Below, one piece after another: positions 25,201-59,870 of a stretch of 64,000 bases of DNA (positions are counted from its first letter, which is position 1; each line of letters begins with the position of its first letter). The stretch lies in NCBI GenBank assembly GCA_026387175.1, contig JAPLME010000012.1, forward strand, positions 139,429 through 203,428, written 5' to 3'. The stretch is from Candidatus Omnitrophota bacterium (GTDB taxonomy: Bacteria > Omnitrophota > Gorgyraeia > 2-01-FULL-45-10). The translations under genes were made by a program, and so were the position numbers. The notes beneath the pieces are model-generated. The model searched no databases and was not told the origin of the DNA. It worked only from the letters and a program-made list of their open reading frames with translations.

Positions 25201-28200
25201 ATGAGATTCTGGAAGAAGACAATTTCGATTTTATTGATCCACGCATTTTTGTTATCGAGCCTGCCGGCGGGAGCATTGCAGCCGGCTTTCGCCGCTGCGC
25301 TCGATAATACCCCAACTGCAACTAAAGAAATAACCACCAATCCGGAAAATATAATAATATCCAGAGATTACGGCATTGTAAAATCCAAATTCACAGGCAA
25401 GAGCGATAAACTCATAATCCACATCCAGGACGCTCACTGTAACTATGAAGCCCAGTCCAATATAGCGAAAATTATAGAAAGTCTCGTTAAGAATGACTCC
25501 TTAAGTTTCGTATCCGTCGAAGGAGCCGACGGCCTTATAGACACCTCATGGTTTAAGGCATTCCCGGACGCCGAAGTGAGAAAGGAAGTCGCCAATTATT
25601 TCATGAAGAAGGGCGAGATCACCGGGCCAGAATTTCTTTCGATCACTACAGACTACCCGATAAAGCTTTTTGGCGCGGAGACGCGTGAATATTATATCCA
25701 GAACCTCAATGCTTTCACCGCTAGTTATCCTTCAAAAGAAGAGACTGAGAAATATCTAAACGGCATAAAAGCTGTCCTGAATAAGCTCCAGAGCTTTATC
25801 TACAATGACGATTTAAAGGCCATGGATGCCAAGTCACGGGAACATGAATCTAAGAAGATCCAATTCAATGAATATGTGCGTTTCCTGCAGTCTGAGGCCG
25901 AGAAGCATAAGATCAATTTAAGGCAGTATGAAAATCTTTTTAAACTGATCAATGTCCTTACATATGAGAAGAAGATAGATTTCAGCGTGACTGATAAAGA
26001 GAGAAGCGCCGTTATAGATGAATTTAGCAAAGTTCTGCCAAAAGACATTCTGACGGAGCTTGTCAATAAATCGATATCTTTCAAAGTCGGCAAGATAGCT
26101 TCATCGGAATATTATGAATATCTAAGAAACCTCGCCGCGAAGAACGGTATAGAGCTTTTGAAGAATTATCCCAACCTCAGCAACTACATAATATATAACT
26201 CAGTATATTCGAAGATCGACAATGAGAAACTCTTCAATGATATAAAGGAAGTCGAGAGCGTGATAAAGGAGAAATTATTCGAAAATGAAGACCAGAGGAC
26301 CCTCGAGAAACTCTCACGTCACATAGACACTCTCCTCGGCCTCATTAATATAAAACTTCTTAACGGAGAATTTGACTACTATAAGACACATAAGGAAGAG
26401 TTTACGCCTGAAAGCTTTACGGATTTCATGAAGGCTAAGTCTATACAATTCGGCTTGGCTTATGAGACGGAACCTCCAGCCGCCACGGTCGCGGACAGCA
26501 TAACGAAGCTTGAGGATTTCTACGCTATTGCCATAAAGCGCGATAAGGCGCTTGTGGATAACACTCTGGAAGGGATGAAGAAGGCCGACCAGAAGATAGC
26601 TGTCCTCGTTACAGGCGGATTCCATTCCGAAGGCATGGCTAAGCTTCTGGAGAAACAGGGCATCTCTTACGTGGTCGTTTGCCCGAACATAACAAAGGAT
26701 GTTCCCACTCCATATATTCAGATTCTTACCAATCAACGAACCTCTTTTGAAGATATACTGTCTACTCCGCAAGAGCCTGTGAAACAGAACATGCTTGCGC
26801 CTGCGCTCCTATCGTGGACGATGGGATTGAAGCCGGAGGAATTCAATAGGCTATTTAAAAACTTTGCCGGCCTGAAAGATAGGGTGGGGGATGTTCAAGA
26901 TGCGTGGGTAAAAGAACACTTATTGCTATGGCTTCACAAGGCACTTCAGTATATGGGCCAGCATCGTATGGCACATGATAAGAATGTGCTGAAAGATGCT
27001 TATAGGATGGCTATTGAGCGTACGGCTCAGGCTGCAGGGCGTAGTATTGCGGAAGCAAAGGATACGGCAGAAGCTATTATCTCTTCCGAGGTATTTATCG
27101 CGGCATTCGACGCGGCATATTCTACTCTGACTGTGCCTGCTGTAGTAGACATAGCGCATAAGGCTGCCGGTTCCGATACGTCTGAGGAAGGAGAGGATAT
27201 CCCTGAGGACGAGAATATTCGGGAAAAGACCCATGGCGCCACCCTTACTAATGCGGTAATTAACCGTTCCATGGAGGCCCCCGGGACGCAATTTCTGACG
27301 ATATTTGACGCCAATAATCCTTCAGCTATGTTAAATGCACAAAAGATCAATACCAAATTTGCCGACATAGTTTATGATCTCGAGTCCGTTATTAAGGGGC
27401 TCGAGGATTCCGATATCAAGAATATAGTGCGCACTATCGAAGAGATAGGGTTCAATACCACCGAATTTGAAAAAGCTTTCACTAAAGAAAACCTTTTGGG
27501 AGTCCTAAAGTCTGGATCGGGATTTAAAATAAATCTTGTCCAGCCCAAAGAGGAGATAACGGGCTTGAAAGTTCCGGGAATAGCTATGCTACGAATGGGC
27601 TCGAACTATGGGCATTACAGTGTGAATAATAATTCCATCTACTGCGCGTGGGGTGCGGTCAATGCGTTACTCGAAGAAAATACCGGGCTGTCACGGCGTC
27701 TGATAGTGGCGCTTGCTCTGCATGAGCTTACGGAATACGCGGTTCTAAAGAAGATGTTTCCCGGAAAATCTGTAGCCGATGACGTTAATAGCGCTGAACG
27801 GATAGTGCACGAAGCCGCTCAACGTCTTGAAAAACTCGTCGTCGGCCTTGGCAGTACGGACAAAGTAAGTAAACTTGATGATAAACTTGCCCAGATCACA
27901 ACCGAATATTATAATGAATTTTCCCAGAGGCTCCTTGATATAGTGGTTAAGAATGCTAAATTGAACTCTGCAGACAAAGGGTACCTGTGGAGTATGTGGA
28001 AACAGCATATCGTGCGTTATACTTCATCCGGCGGCAGGAAGCAACTAAGGATCATAACGGATCGAAAATTGCTTGATAGCCCGAAATTCGATCCGCTTGT
28101 AGATGGCAACTTCCTGCTTGCGTCGATGCTTTCTGACAAAGAGAGAGAGACGATCCTGGGCGCTTTCGAATATTCAGATCTTAAAAATGACGAAGCGAAC

Positions 28201-31200
28201 GCCGAAGCGGCAAGACAGGTGGTTGTAACCGCTAACTCAATGGACGGCGGCCTCGGTGAAAGTACTGGACGCATGAAGTTCCTTCAAATGATGGCTGTGG
28301 AAAACGGTCTGTCTCCGAAGGTAGAAATGGGTGCGAAAGGGACGGACTTTGGATATTTTATGACTTATAAAGGCCATAAAGTGTTTGTAAGTATAGCAGA
28401 GGCGAAGCTTCTACAGTTATATCTGGCCGCTACGGCAACAGATATTGCCGGTAATAAAAAATTCGGCGGCATAAATTTCCAGCCGCTTGTGAATAAGGAC
28501 TCAAAAAAATCGTATAAAAACCTATTAAATAAGGTTTGTATATTTGACAGTCTTGACCCTAATGTGGAGCTTAAGCGGAGCTACAAGGATCTGCTTGAGG
28601 CCGCCGGGGTGAAAGTGTTCGATGATATGCTCGAGCAGGCCGATCTTCCCTGGATAGACATGGCGACTCATAATATAACATTGGGCTTAGATGAAGAGAG
28701 GCGCCAACCGGGCGGACACGGCCAGTGGGGTTTTTACTTTCTGTACGACGCCTATTCCTCGAAACCTCCCGATGACGGGAAGACGCATGTCAGGGTTTTT
28801 TATAATGGAGATAACCTCAATAGCAGGATCAATGAAAATATTGCCGGGGCCATGGTGAGAAATAGGTGGCCGATCGTGAAACTGACGACTATAGCGACCG
28901 GAATAGATAAGAAGGGCGGCAAGGACGGCGTCAGAATAAAGAAGGTAGGAGACAAGACTGTCTACATACCTGACCAAATGGAAGAGGCGGAGGCCAAAAG
29001 AGCCGGCCAGCTCGAAGAGTTCTATGGTGCCGGACTGGAAGGTGGCCTCGGGGAAAATAATAAACAGCCTTTCAATACTAATATGTTCTACATGAACATT
29101 ACATTGATTCATAGCGTAATGCGGGAACTGATGGAACAGGGATTGATCTCGGAAGAAAAATTCTATGACATCATCTCGCCTATATTGATACCTAGGGAGA
29201 AAGAGGATCCGGTGACTAAAGCTAAAGGTGCGTATGCCCCTATTGATGGAGCGATAGGCGTCGCTATGCACCATTTTAATGAATTTTTCCTGTTGAATAC
29301 CGATCCAAAGGTAAAAGCAGTGCTTGATAAATACGGAATCAAAAGGATGCTCTATTTTGTTAATGTTCCGCGGACGGAGTTCTTTACACCGGTAAAAAAA
29401 TGCTATGATATGTGGCTTCAGGCCTATAGCGACTATTATACTAAGATCGATACCGGAAGCTGGTCGCTGAAAGATTCCGAAGGAGCTGTAACGCCACCTG
29501 GCTTTGTTCTTATAGAACCACCGTTTGAGGAAAAAGATACGAAGAGTTATTGGAATGAAATGCAGAATGTTATCGATTCGTTCGGGCATGCCAGCACCAT
29601 ACAATTGAAATCATTAACCATCGTAGGTAAAATAATTGCGAAAGACGCCAAATTCATCGGCACCGTAGTTATAGAAAACAAAAATTCTCAGATTGTAGAT
29701 CTAAATCAACTGAGGGCTACTAATCCAGAGCTTGAAGCGCTCTATAGTGGGGACAAAGCTATCCTTAAAGATGTGCGAATCGTTATAAATAAGGATCTTT
29801 CGGTGACCGTAGAACCCATTAGCAAAGATGCCCGAATCACTGTAAATGAAGATTTCTCAGTGACCATCGAACCCAGCAGCACGAATGGGGACGTCGGCGC
29901 GATACGCGGTAACGGCGAAGGTGTCTCGGCGGAAGAACATGGCACGAGGACTCTCGGAAATGCTAATTATGACAGAGTCAAGGCCGCCCAGGAATATAGC
30001 CTGAACGGAATAATTGCGCGAAGATTTGATTCCGATAATGGAAACGGCAGCGTTGTTTACACCCTTTCTACCGAAAGAGATTATCGTCCATTCATGGGGG
30101 ATAAGAAAGTAGCAGGAATAAATATCGCTGATTTTAATAAAGACGGCGAACAGGCCAAACTTGAGCTGATCAAGAGGAGCCTCGTCGGAGAAAATATCAC
30201 ATTTTATATTATCAAAGGCTTAAAGGATAAGCTATTACAAAGCGGCATAGTTCCGGATCTGATGTTCCATCCGGGCGTGACGAGACGCGCCATATATATG
30301 GATGAAGGCGATTTCAGGTATCTGCTCTCTTTGGAAAACGGCGTCGATATCATAGCAGAGGCTGTGAAGCACGAAAAGGCTCACATGAAAGATTCTTCAG
30401 CAACAGAAGCAGCGGTTGAGAAAATAGCCCCGATCTATAACGTGAGGTTGGCGTTTACTTTAAGGGATGTGGCCCAGAATAGGGCTAAGATGGAGATTGA
30501 AAACAGACAATTCGAAGTCGGTAAGGAGTATGAACCGGGCAAAGTTTATCAGAAGCCTCTTCCAAAGTTCGCGAAGTTTGGGACGAGCGGCGTCAGGTGG
30601 CTGACATGGGATATATTTGAACAATTCAGACAGGCCGCGGAAAAAGTTAAAGCAGGCAAGGCTGATATCACCGCGCAAGACAGAGAGTTTGCAAGGAAGT
30701 ACGATGTCCTTGTGTCGAACGGTTACACGCAGGCGGACTTTACTATGCCTAACATCGGACTCGTAACGAAATCGATAGCTCTTTACAATTTAAAGAAAGC
30801 TCAAGGATTGTATGAGACCGTTTCCGGGACGACCGATGATTTCAGGAAGAAACTCGAGGAGAAGGGCTTGCTCCTATTCTACGATAACCGCCCGGGGAAT
30901 TTTGAATATGTAAAAGAGATGGCGCGGATACTTGTCTCATACGGTATAAAGGTAACATTAAATAAATTCGAAAATAAATTTACTCCGGTACTCATAGCAT
31001 CCATGAGCTTACTCATAAAGAGAGAAGGGTATGCGGGCGGATTATATTTAACAGCCAGCCATAACGGCGATGAGTGGAACGGTATTAAATTTAACGCGGA
31101 AGACGGCGCGCCGTCAATGCCTAAAGTTACTGACGCTATAGGCGCGATACTTGCGGAGGAGATCGGCCGCGAAAAGCCGGGATACGATAGAGCCAAAAAA

Positions 31201-34200
31201 GATGTGGAAGGCCTTATGGCCGACGGCAAAATAGCGGCCATGGACGCCACGCGATATTATGTTGATGCCGTCCTGAACTATATGGGGCCGGAGAGAGTAG
31301 AGGCCGTAAAACAGGCGATCAGGGAGAAGAGAGTTACATTCATATACAGCGCGTTTTATGGAAGTTCCGGCCTTGCCATGAAGATGCTCTGTGAGCGTCT
31401 CGGAATGTCGGAAGAGACTATAGAAAAAAATATAATTGAGATCGAAAAACCAGGTGAGGGCGTTTACGTCGCAAGTTACGAACCTACGCTGGAGAAGCTC
31501 GAAGTTCTTAAAGCGAAAGTTGATAAAGTGGTAGCTGATATAAAGGATCAGGGTGGAACTCCGATAGTAATAGGAGGTTCAGCCGATAATGACGCTGACA
31601 GATTCCAGGTTAACGAGAATGGAGAAGAGTATATACCCGGGAGGCTTACGGCTATACTTGGTCACTACCTTGTTACTTCGAGAAACTTGCGCGGTAAAGA
31701 TGTGCTGTGGGGCAGAAGCTTCGTATCCAGTCACTACCCGGACGAAGTAGCGATGCTTTTCGGGCAGAAGACGCAAGTAGAGCCCACAGGATTCAAATTT
31801 TCCCCGTCCGTTTTGGCTAAAGGCGGCGTAATATTTTACGAAGAAAGCTATGGCCAGTCATTCTGGGACTGGACACTCGATAAGGACGGTGTCTTACCGG
31901 CAATATTAGCGCTTGAACTTGTAGCGACTACAGGCAAGAGCCTCGCGGAATATGAAAAAGGTATTAAGAATGAACTGAAGGCGGCAGGATTACTGTCAGA
32001 ATTTCATTTCGAACGGGATGACAAGCGTTTACCCGGAGATGTTAAAGACAATGCCGTAAAATTATTTAAAGAATTCTTTAACGGTATTGTGGTAAACCAG
32101 ACCACCTTCGCCGGAAAGAAGATAACCGAAAAATATGATTCTGCTAAATTCGGCGGGATGAAATTTGTTATGGAGGACGGCAGTTGGATCGCTCTGCGCT
32201 CATCCGGGACTGAGCCGGTCATACGTGTCTATATGGAAGCTAAGGATGCTGCGGCAGTCAACGTATTGCGTCAGGCGGCCCTTGTATTGATGGCGCTTAA
32301 TGCAGAGAGATCCAAAACAGAGACTGCAGGTGCTGTAGAGGGCGGAAAGAAACTGCACACGCCTCTCGACGCAAAAGGCGATAAGGCGCTCGCGGCCGGC
32401 TTCCTGAAAGCAGGATATAATAAGGAAGGCAAGACCGCCAACATCGGGTATGGTGTCGAAGAAGGGGCGGTAATCGATGGATCGTTCGCCACAGAGGGCG
32501 AAGGCATCCAGGGTTATTATGTCGATAAAGGAAAGCAATTTCTAGCTACCATTAAGGATATGAGAGATTTCTTTGCCAGACGCGCGCAAATATTAGGTAA
32601 GAATATAAAATATGTAATAAAACCGGGTATTGGCGGCCAGCACACGCCGTTCCAGGGTATCGCTGAAGTCTTTCAGGTGATCGATACGGAAACCGGAATG
32701 GTCGTAGGCGAATACGAGCTGGGTAAGAATTACGAAGAAGCGCTTGGTAAAGTGTTGGCAGGGCTTGGTGCCGACTGGGACCAGATTGCGGTGATCCCGA
32801 GCTCGAAATCAGGCTCCACCGATGAGACGATGATGATATTCAGCGAAATCTTCTACACGCTCCTTAAGAAGATAGCCGAGAAGCAGGGCCTTAACGGCGA
32901 ACAGTTCTCCGACACCTTCTTTAATACATTGCATGATATAAATTTCGAGAATGGCGTCGAACGGAAGGGCGCGGATCTCTTTAAGGGATTCAGTTTGACG
33001 CTCCTTACGAATAATCTGAAAGCCGTTCCGGGATTCAAGACAGACTATGAACAGGTGAGAAATGTGTTCCGTGTTGTATTGGGAAACATGTTCTTTGAGA
33101 CTACCGATAGGCCCTCACAGAGCCGTCTCGCGGCCTTTATTAAAAACTCGGGCCTCGATAAGGAGCTGGGTGAAAAATACGCGCCCGGATTCGGCGCGAT
33201 GTTCGACAATGTCGGCGGACGCTGGACAGCGGACCTTCATATGATGACCTTCCTGGCATATCATAATATGACCGATGAAGAGATAATGGCGTATTGGCAG
33301 AGCCGGTATAACGGCATAAATGAAGTCCGTAACGGTACGCATCTGGCTAATAGTCTCGCGAAGAAGATACTCGACGAAGGGATCACCGATATAGCTCTGG
33401 TCGTTCCGAACGAGCTATTCTGGTTCGGTAAGTCCATAGAGCAGAACTTTAACGAATCTATCTGGCAGGAAGGTTTCGCTAATCTGGTCGCCGTTAAAGC
33501 GAGTAATTGGGAATACCAAAAAGCTAACTATTCCGGTAAATCGAAACGGCTTGTCGTGGATATTACCGGAGCAGAACTCGATATGAAAGGCTGCGATCTC
33601 TTTAAAGTGCCCGCGCTTTATAGCGGTACAGCGGCAGCCAAGACAAAAGAAAATTTGGCTATAGAGCTCGGAAGGCTGTCTACAACATTCTATGGCACCA
33701 CATACACCGTCGGGACGAGGCTCATAGATAGAGCGTTGGCGCGCGAAGGATATACGTGGGCCGATGTCGATATCAATAATCTGAATAATCCGGCAACGAG
33801 GATCATACAGCGCAATCTCTATTTGCGGCAGCCGTATGTAGAACTCGGCAAAGGGCTATTAGAACAGAAGATGGGTCTTTTTCAAGAGGCAGGCCCTAAA
33901 GCTATACAGGCAGAAGTTGCTAACATACAGGATGACGCCAAGCGCGGCAAACTTATCTCTAATATTGAAGAGTTAGGGCTTCCTGATAATGTAACTGATA
34001 TGCGGACACTGGCCAAGACTATATTTAAGGCTGTCAAATTTGCCGAGAAGGAGAATCGTAAGTTCGTGCCGTTCATATATCTGGAAGGCGAGAAGTTCTA
34101 TGAATTACGGGAGGCTCTTGTAAAACTCGGCATCGAATGGGTTATGCAGGGTACCGGCGACCAGCATATCAGTTATCAGCAGGTCCTGGCGCAGCCGCAA

Positions 34201-35151
34201 AAGTATCTGCCGTTCATAATTTCATTCGTTCCTGAGAAGATGCTCCCGGGCAGGCCCGCGATCGGATTCGCCAAAGGCTACCTGAATAATGTAAGCTCGA
34301 ATATGGTGAGGGACCTTTTCGCGGAGGCATCCTATAGGGCATTGACAGAGCCGAGAACGGACGAGGCAGGACAAAGCGTCCAGGGCGCGATGGGCATCTT
34401 CCTTCGCTTACAGGATTCGCAAGAGAACAGGACTATGCTTAAAGAGTCGTTCAAAGAGGCGATCACAGGCCCGCGCGTAGTAGAAATGACGATAACACCT
34501 AGGGCAGCAGCGAATAAGCCGGAGGCCGCACGTGAGGAGTATATTTACGATACCTATGTTAAAAATGACGCGGCAGCGCTTCACCAGACTCTCGTCGGAC
34601 TTGGGGTCAATACTGAGTTGACGAAAAACAAACAGGTGCTGATACTCTACGATACGGCGATAGATCCGACGGTGGATACAACTCATGTAGCGCACGCGGG
34701 TGAGGTTGCCGTAAAAAAATACATGAATGAGGCGATAATAGAAGTTCGCGGCACAGGTAAGGCTCTTTACGAAGCGGCCAAAGCGCAAGCTGGAAATTTG
34801 AAAGGGCCATACGCGATTGTTACGATAGCCGGGGACGTGACTTTGAGGGAGATAGGCACGGAAGGCTTGAAGGACCTCGGCAAGGTAATCAATGTGCAGA
34901 ATCCTGATAACAGGTATATCCCGGTCATTGGATTGTATGATCTTGCGCTCAGGATCGCATATGATCTCGGTGATGAAAAGATACTCGAATGTTTAAACAG
35001 GATCGCTACAAAGGATCCTAATTTTACGCCGTTTACCTTAGAAGATCTAAGGAAAGGTATGATAACAATACTGCCGAAGATCAGGCCTGTCGATATGGCC
35101 GAGGCTGTTGAAGCCTATAAGGCTGCGCAGGCAGCTCTTAAGTCGCTGTAA
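25201..35151 (+). CDS. Giant secreted multidomain protein (3316 aa) embedding a UTP-glucose-1-P uridylyltransferase-like domain, an alpha-D-phosphohexomutase (PGM/PMM) domain and a phosphoglucose isomerase domain.
   Basis: RBS ggagga. Signal-like N-terminus MRFWKKTISILLIHAFLLSSLPAGALQPAFAAA. TANSMDGGLGESTGRMKF (28221-28280) UGPase-like. FGTSGVRW (30578), TASHNGDEWNGIKF (31051-31095) and RSSGTEPVIRVY (32197-32235) are PGM signatures. KPGIGGQ (32622) and SSKSGSTDET (32800-32830) are PGI signatures. Confidence 0.85.
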   Translation: MRFWKKTISILLIHAFLLSSLPAGALQPAFAAALDNTPTATKEITTNPENIIISRDYGIVKSKFTGKSDKLIIHIQDAHCNYEAQSNIAKIIESLVKNDSLSFVSVEGADGLIDTSWFKAFPDAEVRKEVANYFMKKGEITGPEFLSITTDYPIKLFGAETREYYIQNLNAFTASYPSKEETEKYLNGIKAVLNKLQSFIYNDDLKAMDAKSREHESKKIQFNEYVRFLQSEAEKHKINLRQYENLFKLINVLTYEKKIDFSVTDKERSAVIDEFSKVLPKDILTELVNKSISFKVGKIASSEYYEYLRNLAAKNGIELLKNYPNLSNYIIYNSVYSKIDNEKLFNDIKEVESVIKEKLFENEDQRTLEKLSRHIDTLLGLINIKLLNGEFDYYKTHKEEFTPESFTDFMKAKSIQFGLAYETEPPAATVADSITKLEDFYAIAIKRDKALVDNTLEGMKKADQKIAVLVTGGFHSEGMAKLLEKQGISYVVVCPNITKDVPTPYIQILTNQRTSFEDILSTPQEPVKQNMLAPALLSWTMGLKPEEFNRLFKNFAGLKDRVGDVQDAWVKEHLLLWLHKALQYMGQHRMAHDKNVLKDAYRMAIERTAQAAGRSIAEAKDTAEAIISSEVFIAAFDAAYSTLTVPAVVDIAHKAAGSDTSEEGEDIPEDENIREKTHGATLTNAVINRSMEAPGTQFLTIFDANNPSAMLNAQKINTKFADIVYDLESVIKGLEDSDIKNIVRTIEEIGFNTTEFEKAFTKENLLGVLKSGSGFKINLVQPKEEITGLKVPGIAMLRMGSNYGHYSVNNNSIYCAWGAVNALLEENTGLSRRLIVALALHELTEYAVLKKMFPGKSVADDVNSAERIVHEAAQRLEKLVVGLGSTDKVSKLDDKLAQITTEYYNEFSQRLLDIVVKNAKLNSADKGYLWSMWKQHIVRYTSSGGRKQLRIITDRKLLDSPKFDPLVDGNFLLASMLSDKERETILGAFEYSDLKNDEANAEAARQVVVTANSMDGGLGESTGRMKFLQMMAVENGLSPKVEMGAKGTDFGYFMTYKGHKVFVSIAEAKLLQLYLAATATDIAGNKKFGGINFQPLVNKDSKKSYKNLLNKVCIFDSLDPNVELKRSYKDLLEAAGVKVFDDMLEQADLPWIDMATHNITLGLDEERRQPGGHGQWGFYFLYDAYSSKPPDDGKTHVRVFYNGDNLNSRINENIAGAMVRNRWPIVKLTTIATGIDKKGGKDGVRIKKVGDKTVYIPDQMEEAEAKRAGQLEEFYGAGLEGGLGENNKQPFNTNMFYMNITLIHSVMRELMEQGLISEEKFYDIISPILIPREKEDPVTKAKGAYAPIDGAIGVAMHHFNEFFLLNTDPKVKAVLDKYGIKRMLYFVNVPRTEFFTPVKKCYDMWLQAYSDYYTKIDTGSWSLKDSEGAVTPPGFVLIEPPFEEKDTKSYWNEMQNVIDSFGHASTIQLKSLTIVGKIIAKDAKFIGTVVIENKNSQIVDLNQLRATNPELEALYSGDKAILKDVRIVINKDLSVTVEPISKDARITVNEDFSVTIEPSSTNGDVGAIRGNGEGVSAEEHGTRTLGNANYDRVKAAQEYSLNGIIARRFDSDNGNGSVVYTLSTERDYRPFMGDKKVAGINIADFNKDGEQAKLELIKRSLVGENITFYIIKGLKDKLLQSGIVPDLMFHPGVTRRAIYMDEGDFRYLLSLENGVDIIAEAVKHEKAHMKDSSATEAAVEKIAPIYNVRLAFTLRDVAQNRAKMEIENRQFEVGKEYEPGKVYQKPLPKFAKFGTSGVRWLTWDIFEQFRQAAEKVKAGKADITAQDREFARKYDVLVSNGYTQADFTMPNIGLVTKSIALYNLKKAQGLYETVSGTTDDFRKKLEEKGLLLFYDNRPGNFEYVKEMARILVSYGIKVTLNKFENKFTPVLIASMSLLIKREGYAGGLYLTASHNGDEWNGIKFNAEDGAPSMPKVTDAIGAILAEEIGREKPGYDRAKKDVEGLMADGKIAAMDATRYYVDAVLNYMGPERVEAVKQAIREKRVTFIYSAFYGSSGLAMKMLCERLGMSEETIEKNIIEIEKPGEGVYVASYEPTLEKLEVLKAKVDKVVADIKDQGGTPIVIGGSADNDADRFQVNENGEEYIPGRLTAILGHYLVTSRNLRGKDVLWGRSFVSSHYPDEVAMLFGQKTQVEPTGFKFSPSVLAKGGVIFYEESYGQSFWDWTLDKDGVLPAILALELVATTGKSLAEYEKGIKNELKAAGLLSEFHFERDDKRLPGDVKDNAVKLFKEFFNGIVVNQTTFAGKKITEKYDSAKFGGMKFVMEDGSWIALRSSGTEPVIRVYMEAKDAAAVNVLRQAALVLMALNAERSKTETAGAVEGGKKLHTPLDAKGDKALAAGFLKAGYNKEGKTANIGYGVEEGAVIDGSFATEGEGIQGYYVDKGKQFLATIKDMRDFFARRAQILGKNIKYVIKPGIGGQHTPFQGIAEVFQVIDTETGMVVGEYELGKNYEEALGKVLAGLGADWDQIAVIPSSKSGSTDETMMIFSEIFYTLLKKIAEKQGLNGEQFSDTFFNTLHDINFENGVERKGADLFKGFSLTLLTNNLKAVPGFKTDYEQVRNVFRVVLGNMFFETTDRPSQSRLAAFIKNSGLDKELGEKYAPGFGAMFDNVGGRWTADLHMMTFLAYHNMTDEEIMAYWQSRYNGINEVRNGTHLANSLAKKILDEGITDIALVVPNELFWFGKSIEQNFNESIWQEGFANLVAVKASNWEYQKANYSGKSKRLVVDITGAELDMKGCDLFKVPALYSGTAAAKTKENLAIELGRLSTTFYGTTYTVGTRLIDRALAREGYTWADVDINNLNNPATRIIQRNLYLRQPYVELGKGLLEQKMGLFQEAGPKAIQAEVANIQDDAKRGKLISNIEELGLPDNVTDMRTLAKTIFKAVKFAEKENRKFVPFIYLEGEKFYELREALVKLGIEWVMQGTGDQHISYQQVLAQPQKYLPFIISFVPEKMLPGRPAIGFAKGYLNNVSSNMVRDLFAEASYRALTEPRTDEAGQSVQGAMGIFLRLQDSQENRTMLKESFKEAITGPRVVEMTITPRAAANKPEAAREEYIYDTYVKNDAAALHQTLVGLGVNTELTKNKQVLILYDTAIDPTVDTTHVAHAGEVAVKKYMNEAIIEVRGTGKALYEAAKAQAGNLKGPYAIVTIAGDVTLREIGTEGLKDLGKVINVQNPDNRYIPVIGLYDLALRIAYDLGDEKILECLNRIATKDPNFTPFTLEDLRKGMITILPKIRPVDMAEAVEAYKAAQAALKSL

Positions 35152-35460: not shown

Positions 35461-35488
35461 TTGCCTATTTGCCGTTATATGATATACT
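35461..35488 (+). promoter_or_regulatory. Sigma70-like promoter upstream of the conserved leader.
   Basis: TTGCCT, 16 nt spacer, TATACT. This places the TSS about 10 nt before the palindromic leader. Confidence 0.45.
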
Positions 35489-35503: not shown

Positions 35504-35560
35504 GGCCGATGTCAGAGACATCGGCACTTAGCTATCACTATGGCAGAATAAACTAGGAGA
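35504..35560 (+). promoter_or_regulatory. Conserved palindromic leader element, copy 1.
   Basis: GCCGATGTC-AGAG-ACATCGGC perfect dyad (35505-35525), then ACTTAGC...ATGGCAGAATAAACTAGGAG. Near-identical copies at 47588 and 59813. Confidence 0.6.
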
Positions 35561-35564
35561 TAAA

Positions 35565-36245
35565 ATGCCAAAGATGCCTAAAAGAAGAAATTATTTCATA
35601 AATAGAAAGTTCCAGCTAAGATACACCCTATCGATAGTCGCTATACTTGCCGTAGTGATGATCGCCAGCGGTGTAGGTATCTATTTCGGCATGTGGGGTT
35701 CGATCATAGAGAATTTCTCCCAATTTAAAGTCTCGCAAAATCTCGAGACTGCCAAACGCATAACTGATTATGAAGACGTTCGATACAGGAAAGGCGACTA
35801 TCGTCTTGAAAAGATATTCAGGGAGGCGGAACTGTTGAGCGCCCAGCAACAGGACGCTCTTAAGAACGCTCTGAAGGCGGTTAACCACTCTCTCTTCCCG
35901 AAGATAGCAGTGCTCGCCGTCATAATATTCATCGCCGGCATATTTATTTCCCATAAGATAGCCGGCCCGATGTACAGGATAGAAAAATCGGCCGAGTCTA
36001 TACGTGACGGAGACCTTTCCGTCAGCTTCAGGGTGCGAAAAGGCGACGAGATGAAAGAGGCCTCCACCGCGCTTGAGGAGATGGTGGACTCCCTGCAGGC
36101 AGATTTCGTCAAGATAAAGACAGCCGGTAAGGCGCTCGACGAGAGAATAGGGTTCATCGAGCCTCAGATAAAAGGAGAGGACGCGCGGCGGCTGAAAGAC
36201 ATAGTCAAGGTGATAGATGAGGTACTCTCCAAATATAAGACATGA
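35565..36245 (+). CDS. Small membrane protein: two TM segments plus a HAMP domain and no output domain.
   Basis: RBS aggag. TM1 LSIVAILAVVMIASGVGIYFG and TM2 IAVLAVIIFIAGIFI. HAMP-like IAGPMYRIEKSAESIRDGDLSVSFRVRKGDEMKEASTALEEMVDSL. The stop overlaps the next start (ATGA). Confidence 0.7.
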   Translation: MPKMPKRRNYFINRKFQLRYTLSIVAILAVVMIASGVGIYFGMWGSIIENFSQFKVSQNLETAKRITDYEDVRYRKGDYRLEKIFREAELLSAQQQDALKNALKAVNHSLFPKIAVLAVIIFIAGIFISHKIAGPMYRIEKSAESIRDGDLSVSFRVRKGDEMKEASTALEEMVDSLQADFVKIKTAGKALDERIGFIEPQIKGEDARRLKDIVKVIDEVLSKYKT

Positions 36246-47587: not shown

Positions 47588-47650
47588 GGCCGATATCAGG
47601 GATATCGGCACTTAGCATACAATATGGCTGAATAAACTAGGAGCGATCTT
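47588..47650 (+). promoter_or_regulatory. Conserved palindromic leader element, copy 2.
   Basis: GCCGATATC-AGGG-ATATCGGC (47589-47609) with compensatory G>A/C>T changes relative to copy 1, then ACTTAGC...ATGGCTGAATAAACTAGGAG. ATG at 47652. Confidence 0.6.
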
Positions 47651-47651
47651 T

Positions 47652-50600
47652 ATGGGGCAGGGCAATAAAACTTTGTTCAAAAACGTTATTCGTGTCGGTT
47701 GTCTTACTGCATATACCCTGATTACGCTATCGGCCGGATTTATTTTACCGCTTGCCGGTGCCGAGGAGCGTCTTGCCGCGGTAAACGATCCGACCGGTTT
47801 TAGTATACTGGAGGCCGAAGAGAACGGGATGTTTAATATCGGCCCCGCGATAGGAGGCGTCGATACCGAGGCCGACGCGTCGCTCAAGAAAAATGTATTT
47901 AAATTCGACTATACGATATTCCCCGGGGCCATCGTTGGCCTTTGGACGAAGACTTATCCCGCTAAGTTCAGGGCAGACATAGTTGACGCGGTCAAGGCCG
48001 GCGTAAAAGTGCAGAATCCCGTTCAACTCGATGAGGTTACGGTTAAGCTTGAGATAAAGGGCGATAGGGGGGTGCAAAGCGCGCCGGTACATCTGGAAGA
48101 ATCGGGATGGAGCTATATAAATGAGCAGGTGGATTGGGAGAGGATAGGAAAGCTTACTGAAGTCGTTTTTGTAGTCAGTCCGAAAGACAGCAAGAAACGC
48201 CTCGAAGGAATAATTTATTTCGATCTTAATTTTTACAAATTGACGTTCCTGCAGAAGTACGTTATAGCGATAAAAGCCGGGCTGGTCCTTTTAGCGGGAC
48301 TTATACTGGCGCTTATAGCGGCGATTGCCGGTATGCTCTTTGGTAAAAAGCCCGCTCCGGAGGAGAAGAAACCGGCCCTATCCGGCATTGGCAGGGATAT
48401 TCTCTACGGCATAGTTGTGGTAATGACTTTAGGCGCCGCGATGAAGATATATTATCTTGGGATGGCCAACCCTCTGAATGCGGGTTTTAGTTACGCGTTC
48501 CTCGCGGTAGGATTAATAGGCGTCCTTATCGCCGAAGTTTTGAAATTTGTCCTGGCCGGCAGACACCTTACGGCAGCTGAGGTTTTCCAAAATGTCCTGG
48601 TTTCGGGTCTTCTGGCGGCTTCATCGAGCAGGTTTGAGCTTTTACAGGCGCCGGCATCGTGGGTCCAGCTCTTGATGTTAAGTAATCTTATATCGGCGCT
48701 TGCCTTCATAATTTACCATTTTGCCAATGCCAGGTCGATAGTCTCTTCCGGCAGGCACTTAAAAGTGATTAGTGGTTCGCTGATAGCCGGAACGCCGTAT
48801 CTTTTCAACTGGCTGCTTCTTCTGGGAAGCGTCGGCATGCTCAGGATAATAGGTAACGGCGCAACCTTTGGGCTCATCGCGACATGGCCGGCCATATCCG
48901 AACTGACAGGCAGGCTGCTTGTCATGTTCGTCTTTAATGAAATTGTCACCAACAGCATTTCCATCGCGACTAAAAATAAGGTTGTTAAGACTCTAAGGGC
49001 CCATCTGATAATGTTGTTGGTCTCTTTAGGAGTTGTTATAGCTCCGGTGATAGCGAATTTCGGTTCCGGTGCGTTGATCGCAAAACTGCCTATGGTTCTG
49101 AGAGCCTTTGCCGCTATCCTGACGACGGCTCTTTCCTACGGCGGCCTGTGGGGCGAGGTTTATCTGATAACGGGCGCTCTGCTCGACGCCGGCAAACATA
49201 TAGCTCCTTCAGCCGATATCATCTCTAAACATGTCAGCACAGGTATAAAAAAAGGTATGGCATATAGCGCTATATTGATGGGGATGATGTATGCGCTCAG
49301 CATCATATTGAACGCGCCGATGTCGCAGAAGGTGATGACAAGCGCGCCTATAATAATCGGGATCTTCGCAGGCGCGGCTCTCTTCCCGCTGGTTAAGACC
49401 ATAATCGAGAGCTTTGACGGCAGTATACGGTTCTTTGAAAGAGTTAAATATAGCTACGAGGATCTGACTTTATGCGCCAGGGGCGCTGTCGCAGGTTTCG
49501 GGTTCGCCTATATGGCCACTAATAACCTGTTCGCGCATAATATGCCCGACAGGATCCTATTCGGCCTTTTGGTAGGCCTATTGGCGTCCGGCGGTGTCAG
49601 CATCCTGAGGGATGGATGGTATGCGCTAAGAGGCCGCGGGAAGATACAGTCCTGGAGGCTCTATTTTGTCGATTCGCTTCTGGGAATTTTCGTGGGAAGC
49701 GCCGCGGCATTCTATATGGATTCTCTGCAGGTTCCGGTGGTTGTCGAAAAGTTCAGGCTATATCTCAGCTCGAATCTTCCGCCGGCCGATTATATAACTT
49801 ACCCTCTGGTCAACAAATGGGGCCGCATAGATCTCGGAAGCTATACCGGCGGAGTTAAGCTGCTTTACACCGAGTCGGTAGCCGGAGTCATCAACTGGTC
49901 GATCGCCGCATGGCTATTCGCTATAAACAAAGTATTTTTACAGGCATTTTTTGAGAAGGACAAGACCCCCATTAAGTTCTTTTTCTCGAAGGCCGGGTTC
50001 GCCCAGCTGATCGAACATATGATATATGTATTGCGATGGGGTCTATGGATGTCGCCCATCATATTCACGTTCCTGCGTATGATGCCGGACCCGACCTGGT
50101 ATAACCAGGACGGTGCTATCCATACGGTCTTTGCCGTTTTTAATAATATGACGATGACTCCGGAGGCGTTCAGGGCATGGAGCCTGCAGGTCTTCGTATG
50201 GATACTGGCCCTCGACTGGTTCCGCATTCTTATATGGATGGACCATATGGGACTGCGCGTAGCCACTCTCGTTAACTTAAGCTTCATCGGAATGGACAGG
50301 CTCGATGAGAGGATAGGGCGCTTTATCGGCCCGGCGTCGGCCCAGCGGTATATTCCGGAAGGCGTGAAACGTTTCGCGACATGGGCGCCGCTACTCATTC
50401 CTTTTTATCTTCCCAGAGGAAAAGAATGGGACTATGCCTGGAACACCTCGGTGGCGATGCAGAACGCCTCCGAAGGCAAGGGAATACTTTTTGCAATACA
50501 GCGCCTTGCGTTGCCGCAGATGATCATCCTGATATGTTCGGCCATACTTGCATGCACTGTCATTTCCTTCGTTGTGCGCGCGTTAAGCCGGAGATCGCGC

Positions 50601-53600
50601 AAGCGCCGCATCACCTCTTATGAGCTCGTCAACAGAGAATACAAGGTTGTGATCAGGGAGTCCGGCGATATATACAGCGAGGTCACCGGCAGAGAGAGCG
50701 ATGTCAGCAGGCGTTCTTATGACACGATAGACCCGTGCGGCAGGATATTGTATGTGGTAGATGCTTCCGAAAGATCCGCCGCCAATAAACGCGCATGGCC
50801 GGTAGTGGGTAACTTCCCGGCCGGCAAGTTCGAAGCGTCCAACATCGAGAAATGCGGCGATGCTTTCAGAATAATTAATACCAGTAACGGCGTCAAGACG
50901 ACTGTGGAGATCAGCCTGCCCGACCAGGATTCCACGGCGGAGGTGTGGAAGGTAACGGTCGAAAATATGACCGATAAGCCGCGCCAGTTAAAGGTCGTCC
51001 CGTATCTGGAGTGGGTATTGAACGGCGGCATTCATGACAGGTTCCATACGCAGTATGCGAGGCTCTACCCGGAGATGGAATATATCAGCAGGGCAAATGC
51101 CGTGCTGTCATGGCAGAAGGCCACCAAATCGATGGGCATACTGGCCTCGGAGATGCCTACGGAAGGGTTTACGGCTTCGCGCGTCGATTTCATCGGCCGC
51201 GCCAGAAGCATCTGGAACCCGCGCATAATGGATAACCTGGACTTTATGCCGAGCCGCGACACTTCCGGCTATCCGACGTTCGATCCCATCGGAAGCCTTA
51301 TCGTAAATGCCGCAGTGGGGCCAAGGGCTTTCGCGACGATGCGGTTTATGATAGGTTATTCGAAGGATCGGGATAAAGCTCTGGAGCTTATTAAGAAACA
51401 CCTGAACACCCAGAGCGGAGACGCTCTCCCTGCTCCGGAAAAGAAGAAGAGGGCGCTCTTGATCGGCCACGGCGAGATACCGCCCGGGACTCCGCAGCCG
51501 TATTCTACATTTTCCGGAAATGGAAACTCGCTGATCGTCCATACGCCGTATACGCCCAGGCCCATCGACCATGCCATGTCGAATGCCATACATTCCGTGA
51601 TGGTGACCAACCGCGGCCTTCACACATCCTGCAACGGCAATTCACAGCAGAACCGTCTTACGCCGGATTGGGCCGATACGGTTACAAGGGAGATCCCTTC
51701 GGAGGCGATCTATCTTTTCGACCAGGACCATAATGAATGGTACTCGCCGACATATCATCCTTTGAACGACGGAAGCGCCAAATATGAATCTGAGTTCAGC
51801 GTAGACGGAAGCGCGATATTCCGCATGTCCAAAGGGACCATCTCGACGGAGCTGACCATATTTGTGCCGCCGGAAGATACGACGGGAGTCTATCTATTGA
51901 CCGTAAAAAATAACGCGGACAGCTCCAGGCGCATAAGAGTATCCCCTTATTTCCAGATGGTGATGGGTTTCATGCCTGAAAAGTCCGGCCCCCTGGGAGG
52001 GCGTTACGATAAAGCGTTAGACGCTTTATTCTATGAGAACCCCCGCAACATATTCCGTTCAGGGCGGGCGTTCGTTTCGATGTCCATCCCGAGCCAGGGC
52101 TTCGAGGTGAAGCGGGGAAGGTACTTCGGTTCCAGGTGCGCCGTCGCGCATCCGTTCATGGTGGAGAACGGCATGCCGGACGCCGCTCAACTTACCGATG
52201 AGGCCCAGATAGCTGGGCTTCTCGGGACCATCGAGGTCCCCGCGCACGGAGAGCAAACGGTCGCGATCATCCTCGGACAAGCCGACGACAAGAAGGCCTG
52301 CGCCGCGATAATCCGGAAATATAAAGACATCGAAAAGGTCAGGAAATCTCTTGAAGATACCCGCAAATGGTGGCTCAGCCTGATGGCAACGGTTAAGGTT
52401 GAGACCAATAGCCCTGAGTTCGATCGGTATCAGAACTGGCTCAAATATCAGGCGCTGGCCGAACGTATATGGGCAAGAAAAGGTTTCTATCAGACCAGCG
52501 GCGCGTATGGTTTCCGCGATCAGCTCCAGGATACCGTTAACTTGATCTGGATCGATCCGGCCCTTGCGCGCAAACAGATAATCCTGCATGCGTCCCAGCA
52601 GTTCATCCAGGGAGACGTTTTCCACTGGTTCTTCACATTGACGGACGGCCGTACGGCGTTCTCCTGCCGCTCGCATGCCTCCGATAACCCGGTATGGCTG
52701 TCGTGGGGAGTAGCCGAATACATCAGGACCACGGGAGACCATTCGATATTGGATGAGATGACCTCTTATGTGGAGTCGGAGTTTCCTTTCGCGAAACTTC
52801 CTAAGAATAAACAAGGGTGGGGGCATCTGTATCACAGGACGACGAGATCCGATACGGTTTACAGGCACTGCATGAGGTCGATAGATCTTATCCTGAACGA
52901 CCGGACAGGTAAAAGCGGATTGCCGCTTATCCAGGTCGGAGACTGGAACGACGGTCTCGATGAGATAGGATCGGAAGGCAGGGGCGAGAGCGTATGGCTG
53001 GGATTCTTCCTGTACTATATCCTTAATGAGATGGTGGATATTATAGAAGCCAAAGACGGCCCCGCGCGCAAGAACCATTATGTAAAGAAGATGGATGCGC
53101 TTAAGAACGCTCTGGAAAAGACCTGGAGAGAAGACAGATATCTGCGTGCCATCCACGATGACGGCACGGAGATAGGCATTAAAGGAAGCGGAGTATGGGA
53201 GATAGATGCGCTGACGGCATCGTGGGCGGTAATAAGCGGTATCAATTTCGAGCGGGGACTTGCAATATTTAATACCGCTCTCAAGATACTCGAAAAAGAT
53301 AACGCTATATTGCTGGGATGGCCGGCCCTGCGCGAAGATACTAAGCCGTATCTGGGCAGGAGCAGCAAATATCCCGAAGGCGTACGCGAGAACGGTATGT
53401 ACTGCCACGGCGTTCAATGGCTTGTAAGGGCCGCGCGCATTCTTGCGGAGGAGTTCGAAAAACAGGGGAATCACGCCAAAGCCGATGAGTACAGGGCAAC
53501 CGCATACAGGTTATGGCTCAAGATATCGCCGATCGCCCATATGAAGCCGGGAGAGATCGAGATCTACGGAGGCCAGCCCAATAAACAGGCGGCGGATGTC

Positions 53601-53804
53601 TTGACAAACTTTGAGCCCGGACGAATGATATGGCACGGGTATACCGGCGCCGCCGGATGGATGCTGCGTCAGGCCATGGAAGGCGTAGTGGGAGCGTCTC
53701 TGGCAAAGAATGAGATGATCCTGCCGAAAGACCTGGATCGTCCGAGAGGCGGTTTAAAAATAAAGAGCGTGCAGAGGGACGTGAGCAAGAGCCCTTTTAA
53801 GTAA
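47652..53804 (+). CDS. Giant membrane protein (2050 aa): N-terminal CBM-like module, about 20 TM helices, and a C-terminal GH94-family glycoside phosphorylase domain (cellobiose / beta-1,2-oligoglucan phosphorylase-like).
   Basis: Strong RBS. Hydrophobic helices from aa ~200-980. C-terminal region has GH94 hallmarks including the catalytic GDWNDGLD (near 52930) and NGMYCHGVQW. Confidence 0.7.
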   Translation: MGQGNKTLFKNVIRVGCLTAYTLITLSAGFILPLAGAEERLAAVNDPTGFSILEAEENGMFNIGPAIGGVDTEADASLKKNVFKFDYTIFPGAIVGLWTKTYPAKFRADIVDAVKAGVKVQNPVQLDEVTVKLEIKGDRGVQSAPVHLEESGWSYINEQVDWERIGKLTEVVFVVSPKDSKKRLEGIIYFDLNFYKLTFLQKYVIAIKAGLVLLAGLILALIAAIAGMLFGKKPAPEEKKPALSGIGRDILYGIVVVMTLGAAMKIYYLGMANPLNAGFSYAFLAVGLIGVLIAEVLKFVLAGRHLTAAEVFQNVLVSGLLAASSSRFELLQAPASWVQLLMLSNLISALAFIIYHFANARSIVSSGRHLKVISGSLIAGTPYLFNWLLLLGSVGMLRIIGNGATFGLIATWPAISELTGRLLVMFVFNEIVTNSISIATKNKVVKTLRAHLIMLLVSLGVVIAPVIANFGSGALIAKLPMVLRAFAAILTTALSYGGLWGEVYLITGALLDAGKHIAPSADIISKHVSTGIKKGMAYSAILMGMMYALSIILNAPMSQKVMTSAPIIIGIFAGAALFPLVKTIIESFDGSIRFFERVKYSYEDLTLCARGAVAGFGFAYMATNNLFAHNMPDRILFGLLVGLLASGGVSILRDGWYALRGRGKIQSWRLYFVDSLLGIFVGSAAAFYMDSLQVPVVVEKFRLYLSSNLPPADYITYPLVNKWGRIDLGSYTGGVKLLYTESVAGVINWSIAAWLFAINKVFLQAFFEKDKTPIKFFFSKAGFAQLIEHMIYVLRWGLWMSPIIFTFLRMMPDPTWYNQDGAIHTVFAVFNNMTMTPEAFRAWSLQVFVWILALDWFRILIWMDHMGLRVATLVNLSFIGMDRLDERIGRFIGPASAQRYIPEGVKRFATWAPLLIPFYLPRGKEWDYAWNTSVAMQNASEGKGILFAIQRLALPQMIILICSAILACTVISFVVRALSRRSRKRRITSYELVNREYKVVIRESGDIYSEVTGRESDVSRRSYDTIDPCGRILYVVDASERSAANKRAWPVVGNFPAGKFEASNIEKCGDAFRIINTSNGVKTTVEISLPDQDSTAEVWKVTVENMTDKPRQLKVVPYLEWVLNGGIHDRFHTQYARLYPEMEYISRANAVLSWQKATKSMGILASEMPTEGFTASRVDFIGRARSIWNPRIMDNLDFMPSRDTSGYPTFDPIGSLIVNAAVGPRAFATMRFMIGYSKDRDKALELIKKHLNTQSGDALPAPEKKKRALLIGHGEIPPGTPQPYSTFSGNGNSLIVHTPYTPRPIDHAMSNAIHSVMVTNRGLHTSCNGNSQQNRLTPDWADTVTREIPSEAIYLFDQDHNEWYSPTYHPLNDGSAKYESEFSVDGSAIFRMSKGTISTELTIFVPPEDTTGVYLLTVKNNADSSRRIRVSPYFQMVMGFMPEKSGPLGGRYDKALDALFYENPRNIFRSGRAFVSMSIPSQGFEVKRGRYFGSRCAVAHPFMVENGMPDAAQLTDEAQIAGLLGTIEVPAHGEQTVAIILGQADDKKACAAIIRKYKDIEKVRKSLEDTRKWWLSLMATVKVETNSPEFDRYQNWLKYQALAERIWARKGFYQTSGAYGFRDQLQDTVNLIWIDPALARKQIILHASQQFIQGDVFHWFFTLTDGRTAFSCRSHASDNPVWLSWGVAEYIRTTGDHSILDEMTSYVESEFPFAKLPKNKQGWGHLYHRTTRSDTVYRHCMRSIDLILNDRTGKSGLPLIQVGDWNDGLDEIGSEGRGESVWLGFFLYYILNEMVDIIEAKDGPARKNHYVKKMDALKNALEKTWREDRYLRAIHDDGTEIGIKGSGVWEIDALTASWAVISGINFERGLAIFNTALKILEKDNAILLGWPALREDTKPYLGRSSKYPEGVRENGMYCHGVQWLVRAARILAEEFEKQGNHAKADEYRATAYRLWLKISPIAHMKPGEIEIYGGQPNKQAADVLTNFEPGRMIWHGYTGAAGWMLRQAMEGVVGASLAKNEMILPKDLDRPRGGLKIKSVQRDVSKSPFK

Positions 53805-59812: not shown

Positions 59813-59870
59813 GGCCGATGTCAGAGACATCGGCACCTAGCCTGCAATGCGGCTGAATAAACTTGGAGGA
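59813..59870 (+). promoter_or_regulatory. Conserved palindromic leader element, copy 3.
   Basis: GCCGATGTC-AGAG-ACATCGGC (59814-59834), then ACCTAGC...GCGGCTGAATAAACTTGGAGGA. The true ATG is at 59877. Confidence 0.6.

Follow-up and report, generated by a model that had tools for sequence, protein, structure and literature searches.

A 52-nt hairpin repeat directly before ribosome-binding sites in Candidatus Omnitrophota, probably a small insertion family

The window analysed here is a 64,000-nt stretch of contig JAPLME010000012.1 from a Candidatus Omnitrophota bacterium, in which all genes lie on the + strand. The neighbouring genes are broadly those listed in a preliminary description of this DNA, namely a HAMP-domain gene, GH144-type 'Glycoamylase' proteins, a solute-binding protein, a response regulator, a histidine kinase, a GH94 gene (2050 aa), ABC permeases, a ROK gene, and HtpX. 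Four giant + strand ORFs are present in the 64 kb, at 69-7502 (2477 aa), 7661-18862 (3733 aa), 25201-35151 (3316 aa), and 47652-53804 (2050 aa). A c-di-GMP-I-GGC riboswitch (Rfam RF03167; 7519-7598, + strand; 60.8 bits, E 7e-12) was identified directly upstream of the 3733-aa ORF. The 3316-aa protein contains a complete phosphoglucomutase/phosphomannomutase core at residues ~1876-2358, and the GH94 module forms the C-terminal end of the 2050-aa protein.

Three + strand copies of a palindromic element had been reported from this window, and all three were found, at 35504-35559, 47588-47643, and 59813-59868, where none is expected by chance. The dyad GCCGAT[G/A]TC-AG[A/G]-GA[C/T]ATCGGC occupies 35505-35525, 47589-47609, and 59814-59834 (0 matches expected from dinucleotide shuffles), and the 3' block GGC[A/T]GAATAAACT[A/T]GGAG occupies 35542-59, 47626-43, and 59851-68 (0.15 expected from shuffles). 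The compensatory G>A and C>T change noticed earlier in the dyad is real, and lies in copy 2. In an alignment of the three copies, conservation extends from GGCC to GGAG, with the start codon 5-8 nt downstream. A scan of the window with a covariance model, filters off, returned exactly these three copies at 71-75 bits, while everything else scored 15 bits or less. The features are given below, where P1 and P2 denote the first hairpin of the unit and a candidate second one.

35461..35488, + strand: promoter-like TTGCCT-16-TATACT with extended -10, ~16 nt upstream of copy 1; host sequence, outside the repeat
35504..35555, + strand: copy 1 of the 52-nt unit (GGCC...AAACTA), 74.5 bits with the covariance model, in the 5' UTR of the HAMP-domain gene
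35505-35513 and 35517-35525, + strand: P1 arms of copy 1
35528-35533 with 35542-35547, + strand: P2 of copy 1
35556..35567, + strand: Shine-Dalgarno (SD) sequence GGAG (35556-35559) and ATG (35565) of the HAMP gene; host sequence that adjoins the insertion on its 3' side
47588..47639, + strand: copy 2 of the 52-nt unit, 72.8 bits, between the stop of a TPR gene (47571) and the SD of the GH94 gene
47640-47643 and 47652, + strand: SD GGAG and ATG of the GH94 gene (2050 aa), directly 3' of copy 2
59813..59864, + strand: copy 3 of the 52-nt unit, 71.5 bits, between the stop of the ROK gene (59809) and the SD of htpX
59865-59869 and 59877, + strand: SD GGAGG and true start ATG of htpX, directly 3' of copy 3

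The ATG at 59847 in the ORF list falls within copy 3 and is not the true htpX start. A promoter-like sequence had been described before each copy; this is convincing for copy 1, but copy 2 has only a weaker match inside the upstream gene, and copy 3 has none. The further suggestion that the GH94 and htpX genes stand first in their operons is probably wrong, because copies 2 and 3 begin only 16 and 3 nt past the stop of the preceding same-strand gene and the corresponding gaps in relatives are mostly short (16-68 nt; 180 nt in L087, as annotated). All nine HAMP-gene Logan contigs begin ~62 nt upstream of the start codon, at the motif, which is how assemblers treat repeats.

The unit reads, in order, (G)GCC-P1-GGC, AC, P2 (UUAGCCn-loop-nGGCUGA), and AUAAACUU, and is followed by GGAG or another purine-rich SD. 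P1 has a 9-bp stem capped by a loop of 3-4 nt, and its sequence is variable, 22 distinct versions being present among the 27 copies compared. Its GC and CG (two) pairs are invariant, while the upper six pairs change on both sides (GC/UA, GC/AU, UA/GC/CG, CG/UA). These 27 copies had been collected with a pattern that leaves the hairpin unconstrained. Both partners change in six of the nine pairs, pairing is kept in 91% of cells, and the observed covariation score was reached by 0 of 500 shuffles. Pairing falls to 24-41% when the partner columns are slid by 1-3, and RNAalifold predicted both P1 and P2 independently. The hairpin part of the earlier reading is therefore upheld, with P1 conserved as a structure.

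P2 and the tail are near-invariant across copies, though the search pattern itself fixed most P2 positions. At column 34, within P2, 21 copies have C and 5 have U, facing G, and columns 35/42 are AU in 16 copies, GU in 2, GC in 1, UA in 1, and unpaired in 6. G-U wobbles in P2 arise only on the sense strand (U30-G47, plus the C34 to U changes in 5 copies). One P2 pair is broken in each of window copies 1 and 3, and likewise in two copies recovered with a P2-free pattern. Given that the pattern fixed most of P2 and that several copies break one pair, we regard the second hairpin as plausible but not proven. A metagenome scan for P2 covariation, with a pattern leaving P2 unconstrained, yielded 2 true copies among 52 mostly chance loci, so this was a weak test of P2.

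Some 25 positions of the unit are invariant across genomes and distant hosts while P1 covaries; HtpX of the window is 75% identical to that of the genome STD1_87. Copy-to-copy identity was 0.80 within a genome vs 0.80 between genomes. The unit contains the stop codons TAG, TGA, and TAA in three different frames. Terminal inverted repeats are absent, as the 5' end (GGCCGAT...) does not match the reverse complement of the 3' end (CCAAGTTTATTC). A GG dinucleotide flanks the unit on the 5' side in 24 of 27 copies and on the 3' side also in 24 of 27, a pattern in which duplication of GG is indistinguishable from insertion without duplication in front of a GG; at L026, L016, and L027 the 5' and 3' flanking dinucleotides differ. 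The 3' flank in most copies is GGAG, GGGA, GGGG, or GGAA.

Within P1, two groups of variants carry a 2x2 UC/UC internal loop, with UC in the 5' arm where GA would pair. One, CCUCGGUC/GACCUCGG, was seen in three MAGs and the metagenome contig L054, and the other, CCGCUCGU/ACUCGCGG, in STD1_87 and SO_2016_LW1_45. Because they recur in several genomes, we take these variants to be stable sub-families and not sequencing errors. Their positions are as follows.

UC/UC P1 variants, first group: L014 2294-2315; L015 4364-4385 and 4417-4438; L016 730-750; L021 3477-3497; L024 4044-4064; L054 226-246
UC/UC P1 variants, second group: L017 1432-1452; L018 5068-5088; L022 1241-1261

The preliminary description had proposed a search for further copies and for covariation, and both were found in other Omnitrophota genomes. 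One genome per species was scanned with the pattern CACYTAGC-N9-GGCWGAATAAAC, which places no constraint on the hairpin. This returned 18 loci, all in Candidatus Omnitrophota MAGs (STD1_87, SO_2016_LW1_45, fen_1322, STD1_81, and Modern_marine_planktonic.mb.39), and at 18 of 18 a hairpin lies directly upstream of the pattern. Looser matching brought the set to 27 copies, from which the covariance model R1 was built, and R1 identified further copies in L054, L063, and L092. In total the family comprises about 31 copies in at least seven genomes, with 13 copies found in STD1_87 and 8 in SO_2016_LW1_45; each genome has few copies, roughly 10-15.

The genes downstream of these copies are unrelated to one another: nusB, metK, ftsH, parA, a response regulator, moxR, pvlArgDC, degT, ilvC, folD, an acetyltransferase, and small secreted proteins. 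The strand is always that of the gene, and 19 of 22 terminal copies are followed by a start codon 9-19 nt past AAAC. At nine sites the unit starts 0-18 nt after the stop codon of the preceding gene. One further copy sits ~40 nt upstream of the SD of an anti-sigma gene, and one orphan copy (L018 4380-4436) has no gene behind it. In the locus L092 (GCA_041643015.1), the unit at 15986-16043 overlaps the 3' end of a shikimate kinase gene, whose stop is the TAG inside the unit (16013-16015); this insertion has re-tailored the C-terminus of the upstream kinase.

At seven loci, two units are arranged head-to-tail with a 52-nt period, AAACTTGG of the first running directly into CCG of the second, and in six of the seven arrays the adjacent units have different P1 stems. 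In four arrays (L014 2294-2397, L017 1380-1483, L019 1533-1636, and L023 4494-4599), P2 loop and tail are the same in the two units while their P1 hairpins are quite different, and in some of these four the shared P2 loop variant is rare. This combination is predicted by neither simple duplication nor independent insertion.

No Rfam 15 family matched the element at the gathering threshold. At E<=10, three element-bearing loci gave no match to the element, and a 121-nt slice around copy 1 gave chance-level overlaps only (E 0.7-9, 9-17 bits vs gathering thresholds of 45-63). No copy of the unit was found in a scan of viral contigs or by blastn against plasmids and phages. A search of the literature on Omnitrophota repeats or RNA motifs, and on REP elements at SD sites, found nothing relevant.

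Relatives of the window with the same gene order were reached through HtpX and GH144 homologues (L080-L089). The covariance model found the element absent from the positions of all three window copies in these syntenic relatives. Across ~143 kb of syntenic DNA (some loci overlap), the single match was the array before pvlArgDC in STD1_87, which is a different gene. A fourth site could be compared in the gap between ilvH and ilvC. The filled and empty sites are given below, with the unit written as [52 nt].

Copy 1 site: filled in the window with promoter block and element; L086 keeps the promoter block (tatgatatactta), but its UTR is unrelated and element-free, ending in attaca followed directly by GGAG
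Copy 2 site: filled in the window, aaaataca[52 nt]GGAGcgatctttATG; empty in L086 (aaaataca GGAGctatctattATG), L087 (aaataca GGAGttattattATG), and L088 (aaatacg GGAGttattttATG)
Copy 3 site: filled in the window, gcttaaagg[52 nt]GGAGGatttacaATG; empty in L080 (...acaaa GGAGattttcaATG) and L082 (...taaca GGAGGtattcaATG)
ilvH-ilvC gap: filled in L025, aaatgaaa[52 nt]GGAGGaataaggcaATG; empty in L091 (acaaagaaa GGAGcagtaaggcaATG)

The copy 3 site is also empty in L081, L082-84, and L089, and in these and L080 the gap between ROK and htpX measures 16-37 nt. The ilvC site is also empty in L090, L092, and STD1_87. The junctions correspond base for base, ...ACA directly followed by GGAG in the empty state vs ...ACA[52 nt]GGAG in the filled one, most cleanly at copy 2 and the ilvC site. 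The SD is present at empty sites too, and is thus the gene's own. IlvC is 91-93% identical among STD1_87, SO_2016_LW1_45, and the L092 genome, yet these three have none of their known sites in common, and the copies are therefore younger than these lineages. As a separate observation, in the closest relative (L080; HtpX 93% identical) the gap between ROK and htpX holds a different small hairpin, CCCC-UUAU-GGGG, at 5992-6028.

Taken with the dispersal before unrelated genes, this exact presence and absence at four orthologous sites makes it probable, in our judgement, that the unit is one of a family of insertion repeats, each 52 nt long, non-coding, and non-autonomous. The family is carried by a subset of Candidatus Omnitrophota; its members lie directly 5' of the SD's GG, which they would target, and would form a structured leader in the transcript. 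This reading is suggested because the gain is exact, the orientation single, and the termini not inverted, with GG at the junctions and short arrays. Such a unit would spread as DNA through a recombinase supplied in trans. One route would be exchange across the GG dinucleotide, as in IS607-type serine transposases; another would be a hairpin-recognising single-strand (HUH/Y1) enzyme, which would account for the conservation of P1 as a structure. Orientation would be dictated by the target, since GG is asymmetric. Selection would purge insertions within genes, aided by the stops in three frames, and also antisense insertions, where CUCC would sit upstream of the SD, so that SD-adjacent copies would remain. 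The ~430 kb of fetched DNA yielded neither a transposase nor a longer parent element with matching ends; solitary half-elements that could be the ends of a longer element were absent from the fetched loci, and the window has no recombinase genes.

Once in place, the unit would be part of its gene's transcript, forming a leader or intercistronic spacer of two hairpins with the SD left single-stranded. For most copies, folding predictions show both hairpins formed. The SD had a mean unpaired probability of 0.58 at filled vs 0.51 at empty sites in partition-function folds. Because the SD is predicted to be as open as at empty sites, the unit looks tolerated and does not look like a switch. An open SD would allow the unit to be tolerated even before essential genes, where it may at most add a stabilising or insulating hairpin.

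Several known systems resemble the proposed insertion family in part. Classical MITEs are likewise short and non-autonomous, exist in multiple copies, and vary in presence between related genomes, but the unit has no terminal inverted repeats and its sole possible duplication is the ambiguous GG. Elements of the IS607 family have no terminal inverted repeats, make no target duplication, insert at GG, and carry GG at their own termini (PMC6188088). The 52-nt unit is similar in lacking inverted repeats and, apparently, a true duplication, and in having GG at its ends and target, where the asymmetry of GG would fix orientation. However, an IS607 is ~2 kb and encodes tnpA (and tnpB), whereas the unit is 52 nt and geneless, with no serine recombinase found near it. 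IS607 also shows little specificity beyond GG, while the unit was at the SD GG in four of four cases, and IS607 ends carry direct-repeat motifs where the unit has a covarying hairpin.

Palindrome-associated elements (PATEs) derived from IS200/IS605 have hairpins near the ends, no inverted termini or duplication, and strand-specific insertion beside a short fixed motif. The unit may be alike in these respects, since on the minus strand it lies 3' of YYCC. No Y1 transposase with matching ends was found for the unit, however, and its left hairpin, P1, is variable in sequence, whereas in IS608-type elements the recognition hairpins are conserved. Neisserial Correia elements, ERIC, and pneumococcal BOX and RUP are also small non-coding repeats near genes and co-transcribed with them, and their RNA hairpins can alter mRNA stability or processing. 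They differ in having terminal inverted repeats (with a TA duplication in Correia), in measuring 100-150 nt or longer, and in not being tied to the SD, and their sequences are unrelated to the unit.

REP/BIME sequences, which RAYT (Y1) transposases mobilise, share with the unit that they are short, dispersed, extragenic palindromes with a structure-conserved stem, clustered and transcribed with their neighbours. Yet the unit starts with (G)GCC and has no GTAG head, clusters head-to-tail at a fixed 52-nt period and not as inverted pairs, and is found at the SD, 5' of a gene, instead of in a 3' UTR. In contrast to a REPtron arrangement, the two RAYT-like/Y1_Tnp genes found when the fetched loci were searched (L018 and L091) are flanked by their own, different palindromes. 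At L018 1265-1854 (STD1_87, JAQUSB010000005.1), a remnant of a Y1-transposase-like gene lies between the inverted GTAG-head palindromes AGTAGGGCACCTTTAAAGGTGCCCTACT and ATGTAGGTCACCCTTAAGGGTGACCTACAT; this looks like a classical REPtron, unrelated to the 52-nt unit. At L091 470-1290 (GCA_028699255.1), a 211-aa Y1_Tnp gene (497-1132, minus strand) sits amid three copies of a different palindrome, AATTTTCCACCCCGGGGTGGAAA, and is probably a second REPtron-like system in Omnitrophota.

Several observations sit less comfortably with insertion. Invariant positions beside a covarying P1 are what an RNA under selection for function typically shows, as opposed to selfish DNA in decay. Copies from one genome resemble each other no more closely than they resemble those of other genomes, and copy number is low. 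Four of four insertions chose the GG of an SD despite other GGs nearby, which GG preference and purifying selection do not fully explain. The arrays with a shared P2 loop and different P1 hairpins would not be predicted by simple repeated insertion. Finally, a serine recombinase acting on double-stranded DNA gives P1 no reason to stay a hairpin.

Some of these points lend weight to the view, which we hold to be unlikely but worth keeping in sight, that selection maintains the unit as a portable leader or intercistronic cassette, however it arrives, and that the tagged genes form a genome-wide post-transcriptional regulon. P1 would then be a stabilising hairpin or processing site, and either a dedicated protein would bind or cleave the invariant P2 with its AUAAAC tail, or these parts would make up a small ribozyme. 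In addition to the covariation of P1, the near-invariance of P2 and tail in distant genomes, and the equal identity within and between genomes, this is consistent with the confinement of P2 G-U wobbles to the sense strand, the strictly sense orientation, and the fixed distance to the SD. The different P1 stems in six of seven arrays would prevent misfolding between neighbours. Turnover is fast, however: the nearest relatives lack the element at each of the four sites tested, and STD1_87, SO_2016_LW1_45, and the L092 genome have no site in common despite their similar IlvC proteins. Also against a selected RNA are the orphan copy in L018, the unchanged accessibility of the SD, and the lack of a significant Rfam family even at E<=10. 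The constancy of P2 is itself partly set by the search pattern, and copies recovered without it, as well as window copies 1 and 3, break one pair. The invariant core, the 0.80/0.80 identity, and the arrays fit constraint on a functional core, whether for transposition or for an RNA role.

Maintenance as RNA does not exclude an insertion mechanism. A slightly more doubtful, combined possibility is a miniature mobile module with true SD specificity that wires arbitrary genes into shared post-transcriptional control or processing. With equal reserve, the P2/AUAAAC core of such a module might be read by a dedicated Omnitrophota protein or itself act as a small catalytic RNA, P1 might serve as a stabiliser by structure only, and the three-frame stops might insulate translation from that of the upstream gene.

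It is very improbable that P1 acts as a transcription terminator or insulator that ends or pauses upstream transcripts or stops antisense ones. P1 is GC-rich, has 9 bp, and follows an upstream stop by 0-18 nt at the nine sites mentioned above, and copies 1 and 2 gave a terminator-like match on the minus strand, owing to their A-rich 5' flank. Yet the sense strand has no U-tract, the stem being followed by CACUUAGCC, and no + strand terminator matches were obtained. The A-rich flank is missing from array-internal units, the window has no minus-strand genes to terminate, and the predicted transcription start is ~9 nt from copy 1, which is part of a 5' UTR.

Least credible is the main proposal with which this locus was originally presented, a small local regulon of beta-glucan genes and htpX in which a dimeric regulator from the locus, ROK or the OmpR-type response regulator, would bind the dyad as its DNA operator. 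A perfect palindrome near gene starts, just downstream of a promoter at copy 1, does invite that reading. However, the half-sites are not conserved and the arms vary freely, the opposite of a sequence-specific operator, and the same element precedes unrelated genes in other Omnitrophota. In the same-order relatives, ROK is 65-84% and the response regulator 80-87% identical, yet the element is absent at all three sites. Copies 2 and 3 lack a convincing promoter, and OmpR-family regulators are known to bind direct repeats, not palindromes. Because the arms vary, the tagged genes are unrelated, and the sites are absent despite conserved regulators, an operator or regulon of this kind is untenable.

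Other candidates were rejected: a riboswitch or RNA thermometer that sequesters the SD (predicted to be mostly unpaired, mean 0.58 vs 0.51 when empty), including sequestration through CUUAG-CUAGG pairing (lost in copy 3 and unpredicted by the folds); CsrA-type GGA-loop sites (P1 loops are not conserved, being GGA, AGA, AGG, UAAA, AUA, and others); a mini-ORF ATG-GCU-GAA-UAA (an ATG or GTG start is kept in just 20 of the 27 copies, no separate SD precedes it, and it falls within P2); a CRISPR array (a hairpin followed by AUAAAC resembles the tail of a type I-E repeat, but there are at most two units per array, and the variable 20-nt 'spacer' is palindromic and comes from a limited pool of shared sequences); an integron attC site (core sites absent); and known self-cleaving ribozymes (no Rfam match).

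The palindrome common to three neighbouring operons is thus not the mark of a regulon, which corrects a tempting mis-annotation. It is a new family, with no description found in Rfam or the literature searched, within the known class of small interspersed palindromic repeats, from an uncultured phylum. The repeat breaks short-read assemblies of these genomes, and can be used as a marker of strain-level variation. Its unusual trait is its base-precise, single-orientation placement directly before ribosome-binding sites, including those of essential genes. If that specificity is enzymatic, it points to a recombinase recognising GG(AG) beside a folded hairpin, and if the unit is kept by selection, it shows how a portable leader could bring genes under post-transcriptional control. 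Should both apply, as in the combined possibility, the family would represent a new targeting mechanism for mobile DNA together with a new RNA family.
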